NCBI GenBank assembly: GCA_951406725.2
Contig: OX597818.1
Coordinates: 47,058,001-47,122,000 of the forward strand
Length of the DNA stretch: 64,000 nt
Source: Octopus vulgaris
Lineage: Eukaryota
Direction of reading: 5' to 3'
The position numbers and the translations under genes were made by a program. This document shows positions 16,500 through 57,944 of the stretch, one piece after another; the stretch's first letter is position 1, and every line of letters begins with the position of its first letter. The notes beneath the pieces were generated by a model that saw nothing but the letters and a program-made list of their open reading frames with translations, did no database searches and was not told the DNA's origin.

Positions 16500-18095
16500 A
16501 GGGACAGACATGGTGTTGCATGACAGGCAGTTAGAATTAAATGAGCTGATAGAGCTGGTGAAATATGAGAAAGAATTTTGACCAAATTTCTGATGAAAAT
16601 CTTGTGTCTATGAAATTTTGAAAATTGAAGAGAGATCAAATCCAAGAATTTTTTGGTTATGTTGGTTTAGACATCCTAACTGAAAAGTGCATTATTACCA
16701 TCATCATCATCATTTGATATCTGCTTTCCATGCTGGCATGGGTTGGATGGGTTGACATGAAGCTAGCTAGCCGGGAGCTGTCCAGACTCCAGCTGTCTGT
16801 TGCAGTATGGTTTCTATGGCTGGATGCCCTTCCTAACGCCAACCACTTAACAGAGTATACTGGGTACTTTTTACATGCCATTGGCATGGGTGCTTTTTAA
16901 GTGGCACCAGCACCTCAAAGGACAAGCCAGCATGTGTGGAAAACAGCAATTTTACTTAGGTTGACATGTCTTATCAAGTACAGCAAATCACATCTCCAGG
17001 TCCCTTGTCATTTCCTCATTGAGGCTGAACATCTGAAGATCCTTTCTCACCACTTTGTCCCACATCTTCCTGAGTCTACTCCTTCCACAGGAACCCTCCA
17101 CAATTAGAGTTCAGCACTTCTTTACGCAGCTGTTCTCATCCATATGCATCATATGACCAAACCAACGCAGTCTTATCTCCTGCACACAACATCTGATGCC
17201 TCTTATACCCAGTTTTCCTCTTAAATCGTTTACACTTTCATGCATACACACTAGCCATTACTCATCAAGCAGAGCATGCTAGCTTCATTTCTTTCAAGCC
17301 TTCTCAAATCCTCTGTTGTCGAAGCCCATGTTTCACTGCCATGTAACATTGCTGTACCTACACAGGCATCAGAGGCCCTTAGTTACCAACATAGTAGAAG
17401 CTCTGTGAACTTCACCCAACCCATTCTTATCCTAGCAACTACACTTTCAGAACTTCCTTCTCCGCTGCTAACTTGGTCTCCTAAATAACAGAAGCTATCT
17501 ACTACTTCTAATGATCCCCCCAAGCATTTGAGAGAACTTATTGTCAGCATATTTTTAGTGCTTACTGTACCTGCACATTTGCCGCACACGAAGACTTTTT
17601 ATCTCTGTTAACCTTCCTTTGATACTGCTACACCTCTTATGTGTACAAAGCTTGCGCTGGGTACAACATATGGAGTTTCTACCAATGCCCTTCTTACATA
17701 GCAAGTAAGGCCATCTCTCAGAAAGTACTTGTGACTGCACGATTTTTCCAGTTACATTTTTAGTCATAGCTGTAAGTGGTTCATCTCTACTTTATAATTT
17801 TTGAAAATCCACTACTGTTAAGTGCCTCATTGTAATGATGTGTAGCACTTTTGAAATCGTGGTAGGATAAAGAGGAAATGTTTATTAATACTGGGAGCTG
17901 AAATATGGAGAATGTTAAGTAAACAGCTTTCATGGATGTGAAAATTTACTAGTGCCTAAATTTAATGTGATATTTAGGAAGTTTACAGAGATCTTTAAAT
18001 CTAAATCTCTGAAAAACATTACAAGGTCTCTCCTAAATTTTCCCATACTGTTGTTGTTTATATTTCTCAAAAGAACAAACCTATTGTTGCAATAG
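16500..18095 (-). mobile_element. Penelope-like RT remnant interrupted by an RTE fragment (~16695-17725)
   Basis: KFRRDLVMFFRDLDLKISVNFLNITLNL and FSKFHRHKIFIRNLVK (PLE-like) flank FCYLGD...ARIRMGWVKF (RTE). Confidence 0.65.
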
Positions 18096-18104
18096 ATATT
18101 TGTC

Positions 18105-19700
18105 ATCACCATCGTTTAACATCCGTTTTCTATGCTAGCATGTGTTGGATGGTTCGACTGCAGTCTGGGAAGCCAGGAGGCTGCACCAGGCTCCAGTCTG
18201 ATCTAGCAGTGCTTCTACAGCTGGATGCCCTTCCTAACACCAACCACTACATGAGTGTAGTGGGTGCTTTTTATGTGTCACCAGTACAGGGGCCAGAGAA
18301 GGCTGGCAATGGACATGATCGGTTGGTGCTTCTTACGTACCACTGGCACTGATGCCAGTCAAGGCAGCGCTGGCATTGGCCACGTTCGCATGGTGCTTTT
18401 TACGTGCCACCAGCATGGGTATCACAACTGCAATTTCCATTTGATTTTTATTTTGGTGTTGGTGTTGACGTACTTGACTCAATAGATCTCCTCAAGCACA
18501 GCAGATCGCCCTATGATCCAAGGTAAGCACAGCAGGCCGTCCTGCGAGCCATGAACTCACTTCATTCATCGGGTCTTCGCAGTCACAGCATATCTCCAGA
18601 GGTCTTGGCCTCTGTGAGGCCCAACGTTCGAAGGTCATGCTTGACCACCTCATCCTATGTCTTCCTGGGTCTACCTCTACCCCAGATTCCTTCAACTGTT
18701 TGGGAGTGGCACTTCTTCACATATCTCTCCTCATCCATCCGTAGTACATGACCATACCAATGCAAACGTCTCTCCTGCATGCCACATCCAATGCTTCTTA
18801 TGTCCAACATTTCTTTCAGAGCGCTTACACTCTGTTGTGCGTGCACACTGATATTACACATCCAGCTTCATTTCTTTCAAGCCTACGCATGTCCTTCACA
18901 GTCAAAGCCCATGTTTCACTGCTGTGAAGCATGACAGTTCGCACACATGTGTTGTACAATCTACCTGTCACTCTGAGCAAGAGACCCTTTGTCACCAGTA
19001 GGGGTAGAAGCTTTCTAAACTTTGCCCAGGCTATTCTTATTCTAGTGGTAGCACTCTCTGAGCAGCCACCCCCACGACTAACTTGGTCACCTAGGTAGCG
19101 GAAGCTATCAACTATTAGTTTCTCTCCCTGGAGTGTGATGGAATCTGTTTTCTGAGTATCTGTGGTGCCTATTGCCCCTTTGCATCTGCCACACACGAAA
19201 GCTGTCTTCTCGGTTAATTTTCCTTTGATGTTGCTGCACCTCTTATGTGTCCATAGCTTACACTGGCTACATCTTATGGAGTTTCTGCCTACATCTTTAA
19301 TTCAGATCGAGCAGGGCCACCTCCCTGAGGGTGTGTGTGATGAGTTCGCCTTCCTACTTACTATAACTTTGGTCTTTGCTACATTGACTCTAAGGCCTTT
19401 TGATTCTAAACCTTGTTTCCACACCCAAAATTTTTTTTCTAGTTCCAGTAGTGATTCTGCTAGGAGGGCCAGGTCATCAGCATAGAGGAGCTCCCAGGGG
19501 CAATCCGTCTTGAATTCCTCTGTTATTGCCTGGAGGACTATGATGAATAAAAGGGGACTGAGGGCTGAACCTTGGTGAACCCCTACTTCTACCTGGAATT
19601 CTTCACTATATTCATTGCCAATCCTAACCTTACTAATGGCCTCTGTAATAAGGCCTGTACAGCCCTTATTAACCATTCGTCAATCTCCAGTTTCCACATC
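18105..19700 (-). mobile_element. 5'-truncated RTE-clade LINE (RT 3' half, 3' UTR)
   Basis: GVHQGSALSPLLF, LLYADD, FRYLGD, RLHWYGHVLRM, RGRGRPRKT; frameshifted. Confidence 0.92.
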
Positions 19701-20407
19701 AATCTTTAAAATTTACTTGTGCATTAAGTCTAAAATATATAAAATAACAATCTTGCACAGCTTCAGCTTGAATTTTAACACTGATTTGTCCCTAGAATCG
19801 TTTCCCCTGCTACTGCATTATTTTTAAGGGTACAAAAAACATGAGCACCCACTGTTTTAAAATCGTTATAACTTTCATTGTATTGAGTTTACAAACTTGA
19901 TTTTTTTTTGTATACTAATAAAGGAACAACATCATTATCCAGTATTTTAAATCTGGGTTTTGTCCCCATTATCAGGGGTGGCCAGATCTATCTCAATACC
20001 ATAGCAATCAAGGTAGGCATATGCAGCCCACCCCAACCTTTGGGCTGGCTGGTGCCCATTCTACTTTGCTATCATGAGGCTTTTTTGGAGCTGGCTTTTC
20101 TATGGGGAGCATGTTCTTCCTTACCCCCAACCTCAGTTTCTAGACATGAGTGGTCCTGAGACCAAGACCTCTACATGATTTTTAAGAAATGTGGTGGAAA
20201 TCTAGCTCAGGAAGGCAGGGATGTTACTCCCTGAGACTCCTTCTGGAGCCCCCTCCCCTACCTAATAGTTTAGTTCTGCATGCATGTTTTGATATTGAAA
20301 AAACAAAACAGAACAAAAACGAAAAACATAAGTGTATTGATAAACTTTTATCATACCTTGATCACTGTCTTTGGAGTTCTGGGGTACAATCTACTTTGGG
20401 GAAATTC

Positions 20408-20612
20408 AACCGTGTTTCGTGGTCTGCTACCACAACAGCTCCTTTATAGGATCCAGTTAGCTCAAGACATCATCAGGAGGAACCACGTCCGGTTTCGGCT
20501 CCTACTCCTCTACCGTTTTGACGTGCCCCCCCCTTCGGAGGTGTCTTCAGTTTCTGGTGTTGGGTGCGTGTCTTCTTTCTTCTGTTCCCTGGCCTCTTTG
20601 ATGTATCGTCAG
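20408..20612 (-). ncRNA. Cluster of hammerhead-like cores (three CTGANGA, two GAAAC)
   Basis: Minus strand CTGACGA 20612-20606, CTGAAGA 20550-20544, CTGATGA 20476-20470. GAGGA after the GTA triplet pairs with TCCTC before the third core. GAAAC at 20496 and 20418. The stem II junction is irregular. Confidence 0.45.
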
Positions 20613-20627
20613 TGAGTGTCAGCTGGT

Positions 20628-20662
20628 GACTGACTGTCTTGTCAAATTTTTCTCTTTAAATA
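20628..20662 (-). promoter_or_regulatory. Candidate Pol II core promoter (TATA + Inr) of a retroelement terminal repeat
   Basis: Minus strand TATTTAAA starts at 20662; TCAGTC initiator has its A at 20631 (31 nt spacing). Palindromic E-box GTCACGTGAC upstream at 20701-20710. Confidence 0.45.
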
Positions 20663-20678
20663 CCTGCCGCATAGGCTC

Positions 20679-20890
20679 CAGCAGGCAGCCCCAGCAAGTT
20701 GTCACGTGACACTGTCTCACCTTAACTGACTAGTGACGGCGCGTAGTTTTAGCCTGCACTTTTTCTAAACAACCGTCACCTGTCAGCAGGCAGCCCAGCA
20801 AGTTGTCATGTAACACTGTCTCACCTTAACTGACTAGTGAAGGTGCGTAGTTTTAGCCCACGCTTTTTCTAAACGACCGTCACCTGTCAG
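20679..20890. repeat. Direct tandem duplication, ~105 bp GC-rich unit x2
   Basis: CAGCAGGCAG...CCGTCACCTGT starts at 20679 and again at 20784. Confidence 0.9.
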
Positions 20891-21559
20891 TCACCTATCA
20901 AATTGTGGTACCTCTGAAAGCAGAGGTATGGGCAGAGTGTTACATCACACTTTCTGCACATGAACTGGATCTGGTAACACTTCTCTTTGTTCAAACAAAC
21001 AGCAAGAAGGCATACAGATTTCAGGTGCTTGGGGTTAAATAATAAGGTGGTGTTCTGTTAACAACAACCTTTCTGGTGGGGAAGGGTTTCTGTCCTGCTA
21101 TGTCTCATATGAGACACACCTGACAGGTAGCCTTCCAGTAGAGAATGTACAATTTTCAACCTGAACTTTTCGTTGCTGACCCAGCAAGCTGACTTGACTT
21201 CCCAAATGACAAGGGTATTGCAGAAACATCATCATCATCATCATCATCATCGTTTAACGTCCGTTCTCCATGCTAGCATGGGTTGGACGGTTCGACTGGG
21301 GATCTGGGAAGCCAGAAGGCTGCACCAGGCTCCGGTCTTATCTGGCAATGTTTCTACAGCTGGATGCCCTTCCTAACGCCAACTACTCCGAGGCTGGTAT
21401 TGACCACGGTCGGATTGGTGCATTTTACGTGCCACCTGCACGGAAGCCAGTCGAGGTGGCACTGGCTTCGGCCACGATTCGGATGGTGCTTTTTACGTGC
21501 CACCGACACGGAAGCCAGTCCCGTGTCGGTGGCACGGGACTGGCTTCCGGGTGAAAGAA

Positions 21560-22973: not shown

Positions 22974-23151
22974 GGAATTTACAAAAAAAACAAAAGATGA
23001 AGACAGGTGTGATAGGCTTCTTTCAGTTCCTGTTGACCAAATCCACTCACAAGGCTTTGTTCGGCCCGAGGCTATAATAGAAGACACTTACCCAAGGTGC
23101 TATGCAGTGGTACTGAACCCGGAACCATGTAGTTGGGAAGCAAACTTCTTA

Positions 23152-23728
23152 TTTCTTTATTGCCCACAAGGGGCTAAACACAGAGGGGATAAACAAGGAC
23201 AGACAAAGGGGTTATATCAACCCCAGTGCGTAACTGGGACTTAATTTATCGGCCCTGAAAAGATGAAAGGTAAAGTCGACTTTGGAATTTGAACTCAGAA
23301 CGTAGCTGTAGACGAAATACCTATTTCTTTACTACCCACAAGGGGCTAAACACAGAGAGGACAACAAGGACAGACACACAGATTAAGTCGATTATATCGA
23401 CCCTAGTGTGTAACTGGTACTTAATTAATCAACCCCGAAAGGATGAAAGGCAAAGTTGACCTCGGCAGAATTTGAACTCAGAACGTAGCAGCTGGTGAAA
23501 TACCTATTTCTTTATTACCCACATGGGGCTATACACAGAAGGGACAAACAAGGACAGACAAATGGATTAAGTCGATTATATCGACCCCAGTGTGTACCTG
23601 GTACTTAATTTAATTGACCCCGAAAGGATGAAAGCCAAGTCGACCTCAGCAGAAGTTGAACTCAGAACGTAGCGGCAGACGAAATACCGAAGCATTTCGC
23701 CTGGTGTGCTAACATTTCTGCCAGCTCG
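23152..23728 (-). mobile_element. SINE B head-to-tail trimer inserted in a SINE A, 15 bp TSD
   Basis: GAAGCAAACTTCTTA at 23137-23151 and 23737-23751; junction GAAATAC|CTATTTC occurs twice. Confidence 0.85.
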
Positions 23729-24341: not shown

Positions 24342-24925
24342 AACATGGATATAATATTCATTGTAGGGTCCTTTATTTGACTGAAGGAATCCATTAAAAT
24401 AGTTCCCTTTTTTTTTTTAAGGATTCCAAATTTAAGTATAACAACCCAATTAATTTTGAATAATTTCCTTAAAATGTATGGAAGCACATCTTTTGCCTTT
24501 TATTTGTTTCGGTCATTGGGCTGTGGCCATGGTGGGGGCACTGCTTTGAAGGGTTTAACTGAACACATCAACTTCAGTACTTATTTTTAAGTTTGATACT
24601 TATTTTATTGGTCTCTTTTGTTGAACCACTAACATGGATATAATATTCATTGTAGGGTCCTTTATTTGTTTGACTGAAGGAATCCATTAAAATAGTTCCC
24701 TTTTTTTTTTAAGGATTCCACATTTAAGTATAACAACTCAATTAATTTTGAATAATTTCCTTAAAATGTATGGAAGCACATCATTTCCCTTTTATTTGTT
24801 TTGGTCATTGGGCTGTGGCCTTGGTGGGGACACTGCTTTGAAGGGTTTAACTGAAAACATCAACCCCAGTACTTATTTTTAAGTCTGGTACTTATTTTAT
24901 TGTTCTCTTTTGTTGAATCACTAAA
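24342..24925. repeat. Local tandem duplication, ~290 bp
   Basis: AACATGGATATAATATTCATTGTAGGGTCC starts at ~24342 and ~24631; the unit includes part of a SINE. Confidence 0.9.
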
Positions 24926-45377: not shown

Positions 45378-47107
45378 GTAAGTAAATTCAGATTTATTGT
45401 ATTTAAATTTTTAACCTTTTTTTCCGTGTATTATATTTTTGTGTCCCTCACTTCCATTATTTTATTATGTATGTATGTTCTCAAATGTTTATTTCACCTT
45501 TCTGCGTGACACATCTTGTATTATATTGTAGGTTTAGAGGCCAATGAAGAAACCATTTTTCTAGTTATCTCAGGCATGGTTGCATGGTTAAGAAGCTTGG
45601 TTTGCAACCATGTGGTTTCAGGTTCAGTCTCACAGCACTGTGGGCAAGTGTCTTTTACTATATATAGCCCAAGGCTAACCAATACCTTGTGAGTGAATTT
45701 GGTTGACAGAAACTGTAGATGAATATAATTTGCAGGACTGCATACTAGGACGTCCGCACAAATTCAAACTTGTAAAACAGTCCTACCCATTACACTCGTG
45801 GTTACTATTTCAAATGTCCTCGTTTTGGCGCGCTAAATTACCGGAAAAACTTGGTTCTTTTGCTAAAATTTTCTTGAGAACATTTCTTAGTAGTAAGACC
45901 ATAGTGGATCTATTTCTAGCATAAGGGTGTCTACATAGTGGTTTCCCTCTAATATGTGTGTATATATATATATATATATGACCTTATATTATTTATTGAA
46001 CTACTTTAATAGGGACAGATAATTGGAAAACATGTGTTCTTCATGTGAGCATCCAAATTTTTCTAATCCTTTTCTAAAAAATCCAGAGCTAATTATGTTT
46101 ACCATTAAAACAGAATTAAAATACTTATAAGCACCATTTGAGCGTGATCGGTGCCAGCATCGCCTTACTGGCACATGTACTGGTGGCATGTGAAAGACAG
46201 CATTTGAGCATGGTCATTGCCAGTGCCACCGGACTGGCTCCTGTGCAGGTGGCACGTAAAAAGCACCATTTGAGCAAAGTCGTTGCCAGAACTGCCTCAC
46301 TGGCCCTCGTGCTGGTGGCATGTAAAAGCCCCCACTACGCTCTCGGAGTGGTTGGCATTAGGAAGAGCATCCAGATTGGAGCCTGGTGCAGCCTTCTGGC
46401 TCACCAGTCCCCAGTCAAACCATCCAACCCATGCCAGCACAGAAAGCAGGTGTTAAATGATGAAGATGATGATAAGACATTTGTTTTTGGCAGTGAGCAG
46501 AAAACTGATGATGCTCCAGGGTCAAGTATAGTTTCATTTATAAGTCCTCACCTCCTTCGTACTTAGAATAAACATTCAACATAGGTTGGACTCTTGTCTA
46601 TGTGATTCTATTAAAAGAAGCTAAGTGTCCATCTGTAGTAAAACAGCCATCCCTGTTTCTTTGTCATGCCCCAACCTTTTGCCTGGCTCATGGTAACTTC
46701 TCATTTCATCTCCCTCTCTCAGCTGAGAGGTTCTTGACTTGCAAGCTACTTGGCAACCCCACAGGTGCTGGTGCCATGTAAAAATTACCTGTGCCAGCAC
46801 CACATAAAAAGCACCTGGTGCACTCTGTAGGGGTTGGCATTAGGAAGGGTATCCAGTTGTAGAAACCATGCTAAAACAGAATTGGAACCTGGTGCAGCTT
46901 TCTGATTTGTTAGTTCCTATCAAACTGTCCAACCCATGCCAGCATGGAAAATGGATATTAAAGTAGGATTATTTGTGTGTCTTTATAAAAAGAGTCTGCC
47001 AATTTGAAATGAGTTTGCCAAGTGCCATGCACAAAATTCTTGGCTCCTGAGTCACTTTGTAATTTCATGCACACATACTCACCATCATCACCACCATCAT
47101 CGTTTAA

Positions 47108-47782
47108 CCCTTTCATTACTGTATTTATTTTGAGATGCTTTGTGTTTCTTTCAATTACTTTAAATATGACAAAGAATTTAGTAAAATAACTTTGTTATCA
47201 TTAAGCTAGTGTTAGGGACATAAATTGTGACTAAGGTTTGGTGGAAGACTTTAATTCATTACAGAGCCAGAGGTGGTTTCAGTTAGGATGATAACGAAAG
47301 GGTTAAGGATTGTTTCTCTATTATATATTTTAACCCTCTTGTTACTATATTTCTGTTGAGATGCTCTGTGTTTCTTTCAATTAATTTCAAATAAAACAAA
47401 GAATTTAGTAAAATAACTTTGTTATCATTAAGCTAGTGTTAGGGACATAAATTGTGACTAAGGTTTGGTGGAAGACTTTAATTCATTACAGAGCCAGAGG
47501 TGGTTTCAGTTAGGATGATAACGAAAGGGTTAAGGATTGTTTCTCTATTATATATTTTAACCCTCTTGTTACTATATTTCTGTTGAGATGCTCTGTGTTT
47601 CTTTCAATTAATTTCAAATAAAACAAAGAATTTAGTAAAATAACTTAGTTATCATTCAGCTAGTGTGAGGAACATAAATTGTGACTAAGGTTTGGTGTAA
47701 GATTTTAATTCAAAACTTATGAAAACAAGACATTTTGTACTCAGAGCCAGAACCAGTTTCAGCCGGGTTGGTAACAAAAGGG
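47108..47782. mobile_element. Three tandem piggyBac-like MITEs, middle copy chimeric
   Basis: TTAA-CCCT starts at 47108, 47334 and 47561; 227 bp exact-looking duplication including the spacer. Confidence 0.85.
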
Positions 47783-51382: not shown

Positions 51383-52648
51383 AAAGGTAATCCAAGTAAT
51401 ATCAAAAATGAAATAGTTTAACTTTTATTACATATAACTTTAATCTCGTATGTTTTGCTGATATTATGGCATGTGGTTTGTATTCATTCAGCTTCTGCCA
51501 GCAGCCTCTGCTCTATGCTTGATTTTGGATGAAAAAGTGAGTTTGACGATGTTGCTTTCATATATGCCTTTTACTATCATCTAAATAGCTTGTAGAAATC
51601 TTGTTTGGATTTCTTGATGTTTATTATGTACATATCCCATATGTTTTGTGGGTGGATACTGGAGATGTGTGGTGCTTTGAATTCCAAGCTATAACAGTAC
51701 CTAGTTCTAACTTGGGATGATGGAGGCTGAACTTTTGGGTTCATATAGTAGCATCTGGTTTAGAGTTTTACATAGTGTTTAATGCCAGAGTGTAGTATCA
51801 GTTGTTCCAAGGTCTGGATATTAATTACAGCATGTCTTTCTCTTCTTTGCTTTTAACCTCTTAGAGGCAATCTTCTGCAGGTTTGGATTATTTCCAGTTC
51901 AGTAACGAGTGAGTTTGACACTATGGGGATAAGAACTGTGTCTCAGAGCAATCATTCAAATAACTGAGAACAAGTGTCTTACACAGAACCAGTGTGATTT
52001 GTTCTAAATCTTCGCAGGATTCATCGTTCCAATCTTCTGTGCTCTGCCCCATCATAGTAACATGTTCGTCATCACTATTTATAATTCTCAGCTCATGAAT
52101 ATATTCTGAATTCTAGATTGTGATTTCTTATCTTTTATGCATCCAGAGTGGAATGTGTTAGATGATAGCTGTGTACTTGTAATTTTCTAATATTAAATTG
52201 CATGCTGTTTACTTTACACCTACTCATTGTTTATGGTATTGAAGTTTTTGTGTAGGCTGTTGACATCATCCAGACTGACGATTATCTTTAATATTTTGCC
52301 ATCAGTGGCATCATCATCATCATCATCGTTTAACGTCCGTTTTCCGTGCTAGCACGGGTTGGACGGTTCGACCGGGGTCTGGGAAGCCAGAAGGCTGCAC
52401 CAGGCTCCAGTCTGATCTGGCAGTGTTTCTACAGCTGGATGCCCTTCCTAACGCCAACCACTCCGCGAGTGTAGTGGGTGCTTTTTACGTGCCACCTGCA
52501 CAGGTGCCAGGGGGGTCTGGCATCGGCCACGATCGGTTGGTGCTTTTAACGTGCCATTGGCATATTTAAGGAAATTAATACAATTCTGCATTTCTTAGAT
52601 GAGGAATGTTTTTAATATTATGTATCAGTTAACCATTTACCATTAACC

Positions 52649-54075
52649 AATGGTTAATAAGGGCTGTACAGGCTCTTTACAGAGAGGCCGTTAGTAAGGT
52701 TAGGATTGGCAATTAGTATAGTGAAGAATTCCGGGTAGAAGTAGGCGTCCATCAAGGTTCAGCCCTTAGTCCCCTTTTATTCATCACAGTCCTTCAGGCA
52801 ATAACAGAGGAATTCAAGACTGGTTGCCCCTGGGAGCTCCTGATGACCTGGCCCTCATAAGCAGAATCACTACCGGAACTAGAAAAGAAATTTCGTGTGT
52901 GGAAGCTAGGTTTAGAATCAAAAGGCCTTAGAGTCAATGTAGCAAAGATCAAAGTTCTAGTAAGTAGGAAGGCGAACTCAGGGGCAATAGACACCACAGA
53001 TACTCAGAAAACAGATTCCATTAGACTCCAGGGGAAAAAATAGAAGTTGTTGATAGTTTCCACTATCTAGGTGACCAAGTTAGTAGTGGGGGTGGGTGGA
53101 TGCTCAGAGAGTGTTACCACTAGAATAAAAATAGCCTGGGCTCAGTTTAGAAAGCTTCTTCCCCTACTGGCGACAAAGGGTCTCTTGCTCAGAGTGAAAG
53201 GTAGATTGTACGACGCATGTGCGAATTGCCGTGCTTTACAGCAATGAAACATGGGCTGTGACTGTGGAGGACATGCGTAGACTCAAAAGAAATGAAGCTA
53301 GCATTATCCGCTGGATGTGTAATGTCAGTGTCCATGCATGACAGAGTGTAAGCACTGTGAGAGAAATGTTGAACATAAGAAGCATCGGATGTGGCGTGCA
53401 GGAGAGATGTTTGCGTTGGTATGGTCATGTACTATGGACGGATGAGTAGAGATATGTGAAGAAGTGCCACTCCCAAATTGTTGAAGGAATCCGGGGTAGA
53501 GATAGACCCAGGAAGAGATGGGAGGAGGTGGTCAAGCATGACCTTCGAACGTTGGGCCTCACAGAGGCTATGATGAAAGACCGGGACCTCTAGAGATATG
53601 CTGTGACTGCAAAGACCCGACAATGAAGTGATTTCATGGCTTGCAGGATGGCCTGCTGTGCTAACCTTGGATCGTAGGGTGACCCGCTGTGCTTGAGGAG
53701 ACTTATTGAGTCAACATACATCAAAATAAAAATCGAATGGAAATTGTAGTTATCATATCTGTGCCGGTGGCACATAAAAAGCACCATCCGAACGTGGCTG
53801 ATGCCAGCGCCACCTGACTGGAATCAGTGTAGGTGATACGTAATAAGCACCAACCAATTGTGGCTGTTTGTCAGCCTCCTCTGGCTCCTGTGCTGGTGGC
53901 ATGTAAAAATCACCCACTACACTCGCGGAGTGGTTGGCGTTAGGAAAGGCATCCAGCTGTAGAAACACTGCCAGGTCAGACTGGAGCCTAGCGCAGCCTC
54001 CTGGCTTCTCAGACCTCGGTCGAACCGTCCAACCCATGCTAGCATGGAAAATGGACGTGAAACGATGATGATGAT
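52649..54075 (+). mobile_element. 5'-truncated RTE-clade LINE, same family, with (GAT)n tail
   Basis: Collinear with the reverse complement of 18105-19680, with deletions. Confidence 0.9.
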
Positions 54076-55674: not shown

Positions 55675-56919
55675 AGCCTCGTGAAGACTTCAGCTGCACA
55701 CATAAGTGTTTCAGAAAAAAAATGCATTAATGAAATTATGATGTATATTTTCTGCCTCATTTCTTTATTTGGCGGCCAGCCTTCCGGCCGTTGCCAGCCT
55801 CGTTTGGCCCCTGTGCCGGTGGCACATAAAAAGCACCATCCGATTGTGGCCGTTTGCCAGCCTCGTCTGGCTCCTGTGCAGGTGGCACATAAAAAGCACC
55901 CACTACACTCTCGGAGTGGTTGGCGTTAGGAAGGCCATCCAACTGTAGAAACACTGCCAGATCAGACTGGAGCCTGGCGCAGCCTCCTGGCTTCCCAGAC
56001 TCCGGTTGAACCGTCCAACCCATGCTAGCATGGAAAACGGACGCTAAACGATGATGATGATGATGATGATAGTCAGCTTCAAATGAAACAAAATCTCTTA
56101 AGATCATAACACTTTATTTTAGCTTATGCTTTGTGTTCTCTTGGTAGTTTCTTCCAAGTCTCTTTACATTTCTGTTTGTGTCATACTTATCAGTGACAAG
56201 TGAAAATATCACAGTCTGTTTACATAAACTTATGAAAAATTCCTTATGGTATGTTGGCAATTATGTGGGGAGACCACATCACCTCATGATACCGCCTTCC
56301 CCGGCCTACATACCCTCTTCCCTCCTACTATGTGTCTTATAATATTTAAATGACTCTGTTTCCTTTATGAAACGTTTTTAATTGTCTGAAGAAAGATTCT
56401 CCTAGAAAGATGAAAGGAATGTTAAATTTTTATCTCTTATCTGCTACCTGGAATGGGTGTATGCCAACAAAACTACAGGGATGGTATCCTAAGCTGATAG
56501 CCAATTGCAGTCACACAAAATATAGTCAGCAAGATGAGCTTTACATCCTGTATCGTAAATCTCATGAATTATAAACAACTATGCTGTTGATCTGAAAGAG
56601 GATAAATTGAAATATGATAGTCACATAATGTAGTTTATATGTGATAAGCTTATGGTTTCATACTTGTTTCAGTATAGTGTTACAGCATTGTAATTACATA
56701 CATTTTCCCTACAAAAACTTTTTAACCTATTAGCATTTAAGTTGGCCATACCAAGCCCTAATATTCAACCAGTTTCATGTTTAAATCAGCCAGATCCAGC
56801 CTCTCACACCTACCCTACAATATCATCGCAAAAAATAAACAATTACATCATCAAAATCGGAAAGATAAGAAATAATGCATGGTTAATTCAAAACAATGTG
56901 AATAAGTAAGTTGACAAGT

Positions 56920-57418
56920 GGAGGCGCGTGGCTTAGTGGTTAGGATGTTGAACTCATGATCGTAAGGTCGTGGTTTCGATTCCTGGACTGGGCGATGCGT
57001 TGTATTCTTGAGCAAAACACTTCATTTTACATTGCTGCAGTCCACTCAGCTGGCAAAAATGAGTAATCCTGCAACGGACTGGCATCTTGTCTAGGTGGGG
57101 AATTTTTACACCATTGAAACCGGGAAACCGGCCCTTATGAGCCTGGCATGGCTCGAGAAGGAACATTTTGTGGAGGCGCGTGGCTTAGTGGTTAGGGTGT
57201 CAGCACCATGATCGTAAGATTGTGGTTTCGATTCCTGGACTGGGCGATGTGTTGTGTTCTTGAGTAAAACACTTCATTTCACGTTGCTCCAGTCCACTCA
57301 GCTGGTAAAAATGAGTAATCCTGCGAAGGACCGGCGTCCCATCCAGGTGGGGAACTTCTACGCCACTGAAACCGGGAAACTGGCCCTTGTGAGCCTGGCA
57401 TGGCTCAAGAAGGAACAT
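56920..57418 (+). mobile_element. Tandem dimer of tRNA-derived SINE family C
   Basis: GGAGGCGCGTGGCTTAGTGGTTAGG heads at ~56920 and ~57172; monomer at 2592-2842(-). Confidence 0.85.
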
Positions 57419-57944
57419 TTTTTTTTTTTTTATATTTGACAAAGTAAACTGAATGCTAAAGGATTGAAATATCTTTCAATAAATGCATAATGAACCACAC
57501 TAACCTCGCTGCCCCTTCCACAAAATATACTTTTAAAATAGGGAAGTATTTTATGTGAGTGCATTTTTTTTTATATGCCAGCAAATCAGTATTTCATTTG
57601 TTTTATGGGCCTGAAGTAGAAGACCCAGCAATGGAAAGATAACTTTCTTGATATCTTACTTCAAAGGCCTCTTAAATAACTTCTTTGGGAATATTTTTCT
57701 ATGAACTTTATCAAAGGATAAGTTGCTGCTTGAAAAGATTTAAATTCTTCTATATTACACTATTGTTCTGCAAGCTTATAAACAAGGAGTGGCTGTGTGG
57801 TAAGTAGCATGCTTACCAACCACATGGTTCCGGGTTCAGTCCCACTGCATGGCACCTTGGGCAAGTGTCTTCTACTATAGCCTCAGGCCGACCAAAGCCG
57901 TGTGAGTGGATTTGGTAGATGGAAACTGAAAGAAGCCCGTCGTA

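Follow-up and report, generated by a model that had tools for sequence, protein, structure and literature searches.

Is a block on the minus strand of the 64,000-nucleotide stretch of Octopus vulgaris DNA analysed here (the window) a self-contained unit, in which a TATA/Inr promoter at 20280-20890 feeds an array of three hammerhead cores, and would its RNA cleave itself, as a sequence-only reading had proposed? Our best reading, which is tentative and falls a little short of an even call, is that the block contains the 3′ end of a 5′-truncated retroelement, probably copied in Penelope-like fashion, with an attenuated hammerhead in the SGC block order that would cut weakly after the GUA at 20511, if at all.

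The extent of the unit emerges from contig depth. Contigs from four of the 24 runs listed were aligned to 19760-21226; three runs are of DNA type (X3, X7 and X10, from organisms A, C and D), one (X8) is by our guess RNA, and runs from organisms B, E and F were left out. Across 20397-20886 the summed contig depth is 10^3 to 2 × 10^4 times the single-contig depth in most bins, as compared with 2-7 times across the adjoining piggyBac parts. Summed depth is not a copy number and gives the order of magnitude only, which for the repeat is 10^4 copies. Contigs break off exactly at 20400 in the three DNA runs (120, 127 and 98 of them), and beyond this point other copies run into unrelated A/T-rich flanks (agreement 0.38-0.40). 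Away from 20400 the depth in X7 and X10 falls about twelvefold, from some 120,000 to 10,000 at 20838-20886; in X3 it also declines, though non-monotonically, with dips that coincide with private indels of this copy. No second sharp shared end is found among the 24 loose ends listed, out of 1273. The shared end at 20400 and the depth contrast thus place the unit at 20400 to about 20903 on the minus strand, with its 3′ end at 20400 and a presumably truncated 5′ end, and make 20280-20399, a low-copy flank by contig depth, part of the landing site. Hence the boundaries first proposed were wrong, and the block is not a stand-alone unit but a single truncated copy of a very abundant repeat, also present in Octopus bimaculoides, that was inserted into a piggyBac remnant. 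That it is a retroelement in minus orientation is probable.

Within the window no further copy was found. Two repeat patterns gave no match in viral contigs; in metagenome contigs one pattern gave none and another four, and seven were found in prokaryote genomes. These 11 metagenome and prokaryote loci were rejected as copies, being chance 20-mers whose flanks show no likeness. Low-depth local back-joints lead from 20489 to 20401 and from 20598 to 20492, with 20 further joints beyond those listed, and no whole-unit tandem joint occurs among the joints listed. X8 also covers the repeat, at a ratio to a neighbouring repeat of 3.6 versus 6-16 in the DNA runs, figures from contigs that cannot show start, strand or level. 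One of its contigs (contig 29; 1444 nt, depth 175) has some 1265 nt of other sequence joined at 20623 to the segment 20623-20447; in the 30 loose letters listed there is a single open frame, for which the TGA of the first CUGACGA would be the stop. This contig is a lead to an autonomous partner or a host transcript.

The surroundings are rich in other repeats. A second high-copy family at 19930-20245 on the minus strand, at about 10^3 times single-contig depth, has its shared end at 19930, beyond which other copies continue into (GAT)n; it has no other copy in the window and lies just upstream of a reverse transcriptase fragment. Decayed fragments of this kind occupy 18560-19684 and 17000-17700 on the minus strand, the first with a relative at 52640-53310, and they resemble RTE-type LINEs. 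SINE-like families, tailed by (CAT)n and (TA)n, are dense across the window, which also has tandem arrays at 23150-23688, 24342-24924, 47103-47712 and 56918-57421. For the repeat itself, a plus-strand tRNA-type SINE was considered on account of box-like letters and rejected: their spacing is short, and the depth would peak at the opposite end.

The landing site can be read on both sides. Upstream of the insertion, 20904-21225 on the minus strand encodes the decayed C-terminus of a piggyBac transposase with its cysteine-rich zinc ribbon (37% identity over 117 aa, E 1e-8, to P0007, which carries PF13843 and PF13842). Downstream, in low-depth sequence at 20362-20399, the last codons of this transposase resume at 20397 with KVDCTPELQ, eight of whose nine residues agree with the end of P0007, and run to a stop at 20364-20362. 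A dead piggyBac transposase gene is thus split by the repeat within its final codons. At the junctions some 13 nt of the target have gone, and no target duplication is seen. In all three DNA runs the repeat block is skipped, at single-contig depth, by a joint between 20398 and 20918, and 18 letters there restore the H-x-L-R-x-Y-K spacing of P0007; this is probably the uninserted form at a paralogous piggyBac, since one X7 contig also spans the filled junction. A candidate splice donor at 20356 (CAAG/GTATGA) was discarded, because it falls in the low-copy piggyBac part. It is hardly credible that the block itself belongs to the piggyBac element, or is a decayed acidic reading frame with codons mimicking CUGANGA. 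Such an origin would suit its position directly after the zinc ribbon and the fact that the cores can be read as TDD, TED and PDD in different frames, but its depth is about 1000-fold apart from that of the piggyBac parts and an uninserted form exists, so that contig depth largely refutes it. Furthermore, Pfam searches with three minus-strand frames returned no family, and the only close protein match is an antisense one.

This match, the O. bimaculoides protein XP_052824469.1 (P0008), is 82% identical to the antisense translation of the repeat; going by this likeness, its gene model carries an exonised antisense copy. Residues 276-338 of P0008 derive from the antisense strand, which has a 71-codon open frame. 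Searches with that frame matched none of two candidates of similar length and one of 47 longer ones, and phmmer gave three matches, P0008, P0009 and P0010, the latter two being rejected as low-complexity chance matches. Over the codons 20415 to 20525 P0008 is unchanged except for one (the change at 20500, L to P), and this includes the codons covering the SGC core letters, of which third positions are not readable from protein.

Towards its 5′ side the copy carries two tandem units of 104-105 nt (20679-20890, minus strand; 2.0 copies, 91% alike), with 50% GC against 39% in the window and a CpG o/e of 0.68 against 0.41. The duplication had been described as a GC-rich block of 105 bp; it stands, while its GC content comes to just half and the second unit alone has the E-box-like palindrome GTCACGTGAC unbroken (20710-20701). 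Copies differ in how many units they have, as seen from the joints 20719 to 20826, 20730 to 20854 and 20885 to 20682. Next follows the predicted TATA-like element TATTTAAA (20655-20662), retained in the loose-end consensus of the family (X3, X7 and X10 at 20672), and then the Inr-like TCAGTC (20628-20633), which lies within a short CAGT repeat. The A of TCAGTC at 20631, the predicted start, indeed lies 31 nt on from TATTTAAA at 20662. However, the window holds 14 other TATA-like/Inr pairs at 29-33 nt spacing, all beginning TATATAT, so that the spacing carries little information; what is left of the proposed promoter is promoter-like sequence upstream of the hammerhead motif. Judging from these elements, the promoter may equally well be active or inactive in some copy of the repeat.

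The three CUGANGA motifs lie on the minus strand at 20612, 20550 and 20476, as had been reported. Such a cluster is above chance: the window holds 38 CUGANGA, only these three lie within 145 nt, and windows with such a triple numbered 0, 2 and 4 per 100 under Markov models of orders 1, 3 and 5. The claim of a triple core array nevertheless had to be given up, since only the core at 20476 has usable stems. Of the ways to combine a core with a GAAA and a UH site within 20640-20395, eight give a stem I of at least 3 bp, and every one of these uses that core. The CUGACGA at 20606-20612 has no partner stems, appears in none of the eight and is not a credible core. The CUGAAGA at 20550-20544 is part of the left arm of an imperfect inverted repeat (20512-20553), where CUGAAGACA pairs at 8 of 9 positions with the stem II strand, and it is not a core. 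Thus, by its letters, the block has one credible hammerhead-like motif and not three, at the third core, CUGAUGAUG at 20476. In Rfam, nothing on the stretch reached gathering score, three unrelated weak matches had E 1.4-6.1, and the hammerhead families gave no match at E ≤ 10.

For this core, the sequence-only reading had offered two folds, and all their pieces were recovered on the minus strand: the GUA at 20513-20511, GAGGA/UCCUC, the three pieces of stem II, GAAA at 20496 and 20418, and CGGU/ACCG. In the first fold the same site and core would join the GAAAC at 20418 in a type III hammerhead, either as a monomer or as one half of a dimer. A stem I of 5-7 bp and a canonical G10.1-C11.1 plus a U-A pair can be drawn for it, and the element ends 14 nt past this GAAAC, near where stem III would close. 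The fold nonetheless lies 15.5 kcal/mol above the MFE, with junction pair probabilities of 0.0; its stem III has only two contiguous pairs, three loops break its stem II, and the hairpin GUGGU/ACCAC that precedes the second GAAAC (20414-20433; pair probability 0.93-0.99) occupies the strand that it requires. Neither a covariance match in Rfam nor a stable three-way junction was found for a type III or type I hammerhead. We consider the type III fold very unlikely.

The second fold, a pseudoknotted strand order via the GAAA at 20496, fared better: it is the best formal fit and equals the published type-SGC permutation (HRIMA-1 and SGC variants), in which the site is followed by GAAA and then by CUGAnGA (Eckert et al. 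2023, PMC10085705, here and below in its accessible text). Along the minus strand the motif reads CGGU-A-GAGGAG, UAG, GAGCC-GAAA-CCG, GACGUGG, UUCCUC-CUGAUGA-U-GUCUU. Block S (20504-20515) comprises the stem III strand CGGU, the site GUA, with the predicted cut at 20511/20510, and the stem I strand GAGGAG(U). Block G (20490-20501) comprises the stem II strand GAGCC (GGGCC in most copies), GAAA and the other stem III strand; the linker GACGUG follows (20484-20489), and block C (20464-20483) consists of the stem I strand (G)UUCCUC, CUGAUGA, an extra U and the stem II strand GUCUU; at its second pair, stem II has a U-C mismatch. In the order of its blocks, in linkers within 0-8 and 0-15 nt, and in the core letters UH, CGAAA and CUGAUGA(U)G (exact CUGAUGAUG and CGAAA) the motif agrees with the SGC descriptor, and so does stem I, whose five Watson-Crick and two G-U pairs fall within the 4-7 bp demanded. 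Stem III has four Watson-Crick pairs and is present in the MFE structure (p 0.86-0.99). However, beyond A15.1-U16.1 it has 3 bp against at least 4 demanded, and stem II shows the mismatch and then three pairs where at least 2 unbroken bp are demanded beyond G10.1-C11.1. By the U-C mismatch and one distal stem III pair, the motif therefore fails the strict published descriptor. A further combination in GSC order, with the GAAA at 20554, tied in crude score and was rejected, as its stem II has only two pairs and family copies lose that GAAA.

The stem II mismatch appears to be a family trait, since P0008 is unchanged over 20415-20525 but for position 20500. There, T is replaced by C in about 99% of the depth, which turns an A-U into a G-U pair and keeps stem II. 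Among 40 of 154 variant rows none falls in 20400-20499, and weaker variants may be among the other 114. In the published SGC rows with which we compared the motif by eye, no stem II mismatch like U-C was seen. The spacings match those rows within one base: the site-to-GAAA distance is 14 nt versus typically 13, and GAGUAG sits where many SGC variants show GAUUAG, both of these comparisons having been made by eye and post hoc.

Could such a motif have arisen by chance? With the published descriptor loosened in the two places named, one of the 38 CUGANGA anchors in the window passes, and none of 150,000 in each of two nulls (0 of 300,000). A chance motif in a repeat that is not mobilised through RNA, such as a DNA element of Helitron or MITE type that has a hairpin close to one of its ends, would account for the single sharp end, for the hairpin 19-33 nt before it and for the A/T-rich targets; moreover, the motif was picked post hoc from a very large scan and needs two relaxations. 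The null anchors speak against it, as do the copy ends, which no inverted repeat joins among the 10 pairs listed, and the lack of a second sharp end among the loose ends listed, so that we regard this explanation as improbable. A hammerhead ancestry of the motif, on the other hand, we hold to be very likely.

The motif is real as a pattern in the sequence and putative as a ribozyme. SGC-3 needs a I-II helix for cleavage (PMC10085705), and in the usual place the motif has at best three or four weak pairs by eye. The linker is instead predicted to form 6 bp with CACGUC at 20525-20520 (pair probability 0.87-1.0), extended to 7 bp in X10 loose ends and in the coding sequence of P0008; on geometric grounds, this helix could bridge the same distance as the usual I-II helix. 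The linker letters CGUGGU (20487-20482) also have a second 6-bp Watson-Crick partner, ACCACG at 20423-20418, which lies 40 nt further along and is normally held in the hairpin 20433-20419, and their pairing is a possible second conformation, nearer to the published SGC I-II helix.

A larger fold competes with the motif. In the model, a 95-nt rod (20553-20459) hides it: for 20555-20455 the folding energy is -39.2 kcal/mol on the minus strand (z -3.44; none of 200 shuffles) and -31.9 kcal/mol on the plus strand (z -2.75), with bounds chosen after the inverted repeat had been seen, and the whole 242 nt have z -1.36. Freeing the ribozyme strands would cost 20-22 kcal/mol with the left arm present and 7 if the RNA starts at 20526, while the SGC stems would return about -6 (stem I) and -1.5 kcal/mol (stem II) before pseudoknot penalties. 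Some loose-end family variants strengthen a small hairpin inside the left arm, which would favour a motif kept silent in the complete transcript but active when the arm is diverted. Within the rod, a G run at 20533-20526 faces UUCCUC, where an exact inverted copy would read GAGGAA. Replacement of A by G, with pairing kept as G-U, would be in keeping with A-to-I editing that reverse transcription then fixed.

The same rod lends itself to a less favourable explanation, namely that the retroelement end holds dead leftovers of tandem type I minimal hammerheads, rearranged by direct and inverted duplications, in which the rod does the work, e.g., as a reverse transcriptase binding site, and nothing is cleaved. 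The likeness of the left arm to the right one, in inverted orientation, is significant (20553-20512 against the reverse complement of 20493-20458 gives an alignment score of 32, which 0 of 2000 shuffles matched), and such an inverted duplication explains stem III and the linker helix equally well. Three similar GAAA..CGG.H pieces lie at 20519, 20496 and 20418, the first two alike at 9 of 16 letters; the rod folds better on the minus than on the plus strand, some family variants add pairs to it, and a lizard Penelope-like element, whose ribozyme is protein-assisted, inserts in vitro without cleavage being necessary (PMC11167929, in the text available). Yet an inverted repeat leaves unexplained why GAGGAG, inside the loop, stands exactly after GUA and why the spacings are SGC-like, and every type I unit is without its own stem I, GAAU and UUCCUC making two pairs. 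We consider a dead relic a substantial possibility, if the less probable one.

Our best reading, held tentatively, remains an attenuated SGC-order ribozyme that the full transcript keeps silent and that becomes active only with the left arm removed or diverted. In an intact master copy, the GC-rich tandem units and the TATA/Inr elements would start an RNA near 20631. This RNA would mostly fold as the rod, pairing off stem I, the core and stem II and so keeping the ribozyme off. Where the upstream arm is absent, folded on itself or held by protein, stems I and II could form as pseudoknots on a stem III already in place, and cleavage could then proceed slowly. A/T-rich nicks in the genome would prime reverse transcription, which would set out from a fixed point about 110 nt past the site, and a fixed start of this kind would produce both the shared end at 20400 and the ragged 5′ ends. 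By analogy, the chances of a Penelope-like helper are evenly balanced; that a trimmed RNA would be cut where predicted is possible, though we would sooner expect no cut. The SGC order itself may have come about by a short duplication of a GAAA-site unit, after which the first copy lost its GAAA pairing and the second its site; the two segments underlying this route are those that share 9 of 16 letters, and the route, a speculation from the sequence, is offered by our best reading and by the dead-relic explanation alike.

Type-SGC hammerheads came from metatranscriptomes, with none reported in genomes of known organisms, and the evolution of the non-circular permutations was left open in 2023 (both PMC10085705). 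In open-access full text, as far as it was accessible, only that paper describes them, PMC13725137 merely citing the work. The open-access literature on octopus or cephalopod hammerheads and ribozymes, and on pseudo-LTRs, TATA elements and hammerheads (open-access papers, and not Repbase or Dfam), does not report the family; a giant squid paper, in its accessible part, gives 235 Rfam hammerhead_1 matches. The repeat itself may well be catalogued already without the motif having been noted, and supplements of the Penelope and retrozyme papers may list octopus motifs. If the motif cuts, it would, as far as the literature found goes, be the first SGC hammerhead in the genome of a known organism. 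A family in genomes, its dated copies running to thousands across several species, would supply covariation and intermediates with which to test the duplication-and-loss route. It is doubtful, though far from negligible, that the full proposition holds, i.e., that an octopus retroelement family of about 10^4 copies carries a working SGC hammerhead, derived from tandem hammerheads by duplication and reciprocal loss, with an upstream strand replacing the I-II helix and an antisense arm as off-switch; if true, it would mean an animal retroelement whose ribozyme carries its own off-switch. Furthermore, standard hammerhead descriptors and Rfam models miss the S-G-C order, so that similar families could be overlooked. 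If there is no cleavage, the repeat is an ordinary one that carries a worn ribozyme relic.

How does the repeat compare with known systems? The piggyBac transposases (PF13843, PF13842) have a decayed member in its flanks and provide only its landing site. With the metazoan non-LTR retrozymes (Cervera and de la Pena 2020, PMC7229834, in the accessible text) it shares that it is non-coding, present in very high copy and hammerhead-bearing, and with the axolotl retrozyme Amex2 a mismatch at the base of helix II; in Amex2 this is a U-U, and 22% of the monomer is cleaved in an hour (PMC7229834). However, retrozymes are head-to-tail tandems of 170-400 nt with canonical type I hammerheads and a GC content below 45%, whereas here a single truncated copy has one sharp end, shared with other copies, 50% GC, no type I motif and, among the joints listed, no tandem of whole units.

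The likeness to Penelope-like elements goes further. These elements, whose families are abundant in octopus genomes (PMC8967140), have truncated 5′ ends, pieces in inverted orientation and a pseudo-LTR that contains a start site (PMC8557442), their hammerhead has an extra base before G10.1 (PMC4209133), and in their insertion A/T-rich nicks and internal starts of the reverse transcriptase fix the genomic ends (PMC11167929), all according to the text accessible in these sources. As in their pseudo-LTRs, Poseidon PAc included (Cervera and de la Pena 2014, PMC4209133; PMC11167929), the core of the repeat stands close to a fixed 3′ end, has an additional nucleotide ahead of G10.1 and is overlapped by an AUG; promoter-like sequence lies upstream, the 5′ ends are ragged, one piece is inverted, and the flanks are A/T-rich with no clear target duplication. 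The depth profile shows the shared 3′ end and 5′ truncation expected of such elements. By contrast, the AUG of the octopus repeat runs into a stop, and the Penelope-like motifs in these sources are of type I, with a helix I of 4-5 bp, and need dimers, while the type I units of the repeat are without helix I. None of the eight combinations with a stem I of at least 3 bp is in the CGS order of a type I minimal hammerhead, and no open reading frame with reverse transcriptase and GIY-YIG was found in or beside the copy, which a truncated or non-autonomous copy would lack. For want of a type I hammerhead and a reverse transcriptase frame, we do not assign the repeat to the Penelope-like elements.

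The closest counterpart of the motif itself is the type-SGC hammerhead (PMC10085705, in its accessible text), published examples of which cleave in vitro at 0.007-0.19 per minute. The two agree in the order of site, GAAA and CUGAUGA, in the exact CUGAUGAUG and CGAAA, in two pseudoknots, in a stem I of 5-6 bp, in a link of 2-4 nt with UAG between stems I and II, and in a distance of about 11 nt from GAAA to stem I. They differ in the U-C at the second stem II pair, in a stem III one pair below the descriptor, and in the linker, which pairs with an upstream strand and not with the strand after stem II. Finally, the published SGC hammerheads are metatranscriptomic, whereas the octopus motif lies within a blocking rod in a repeat of an animal genome.
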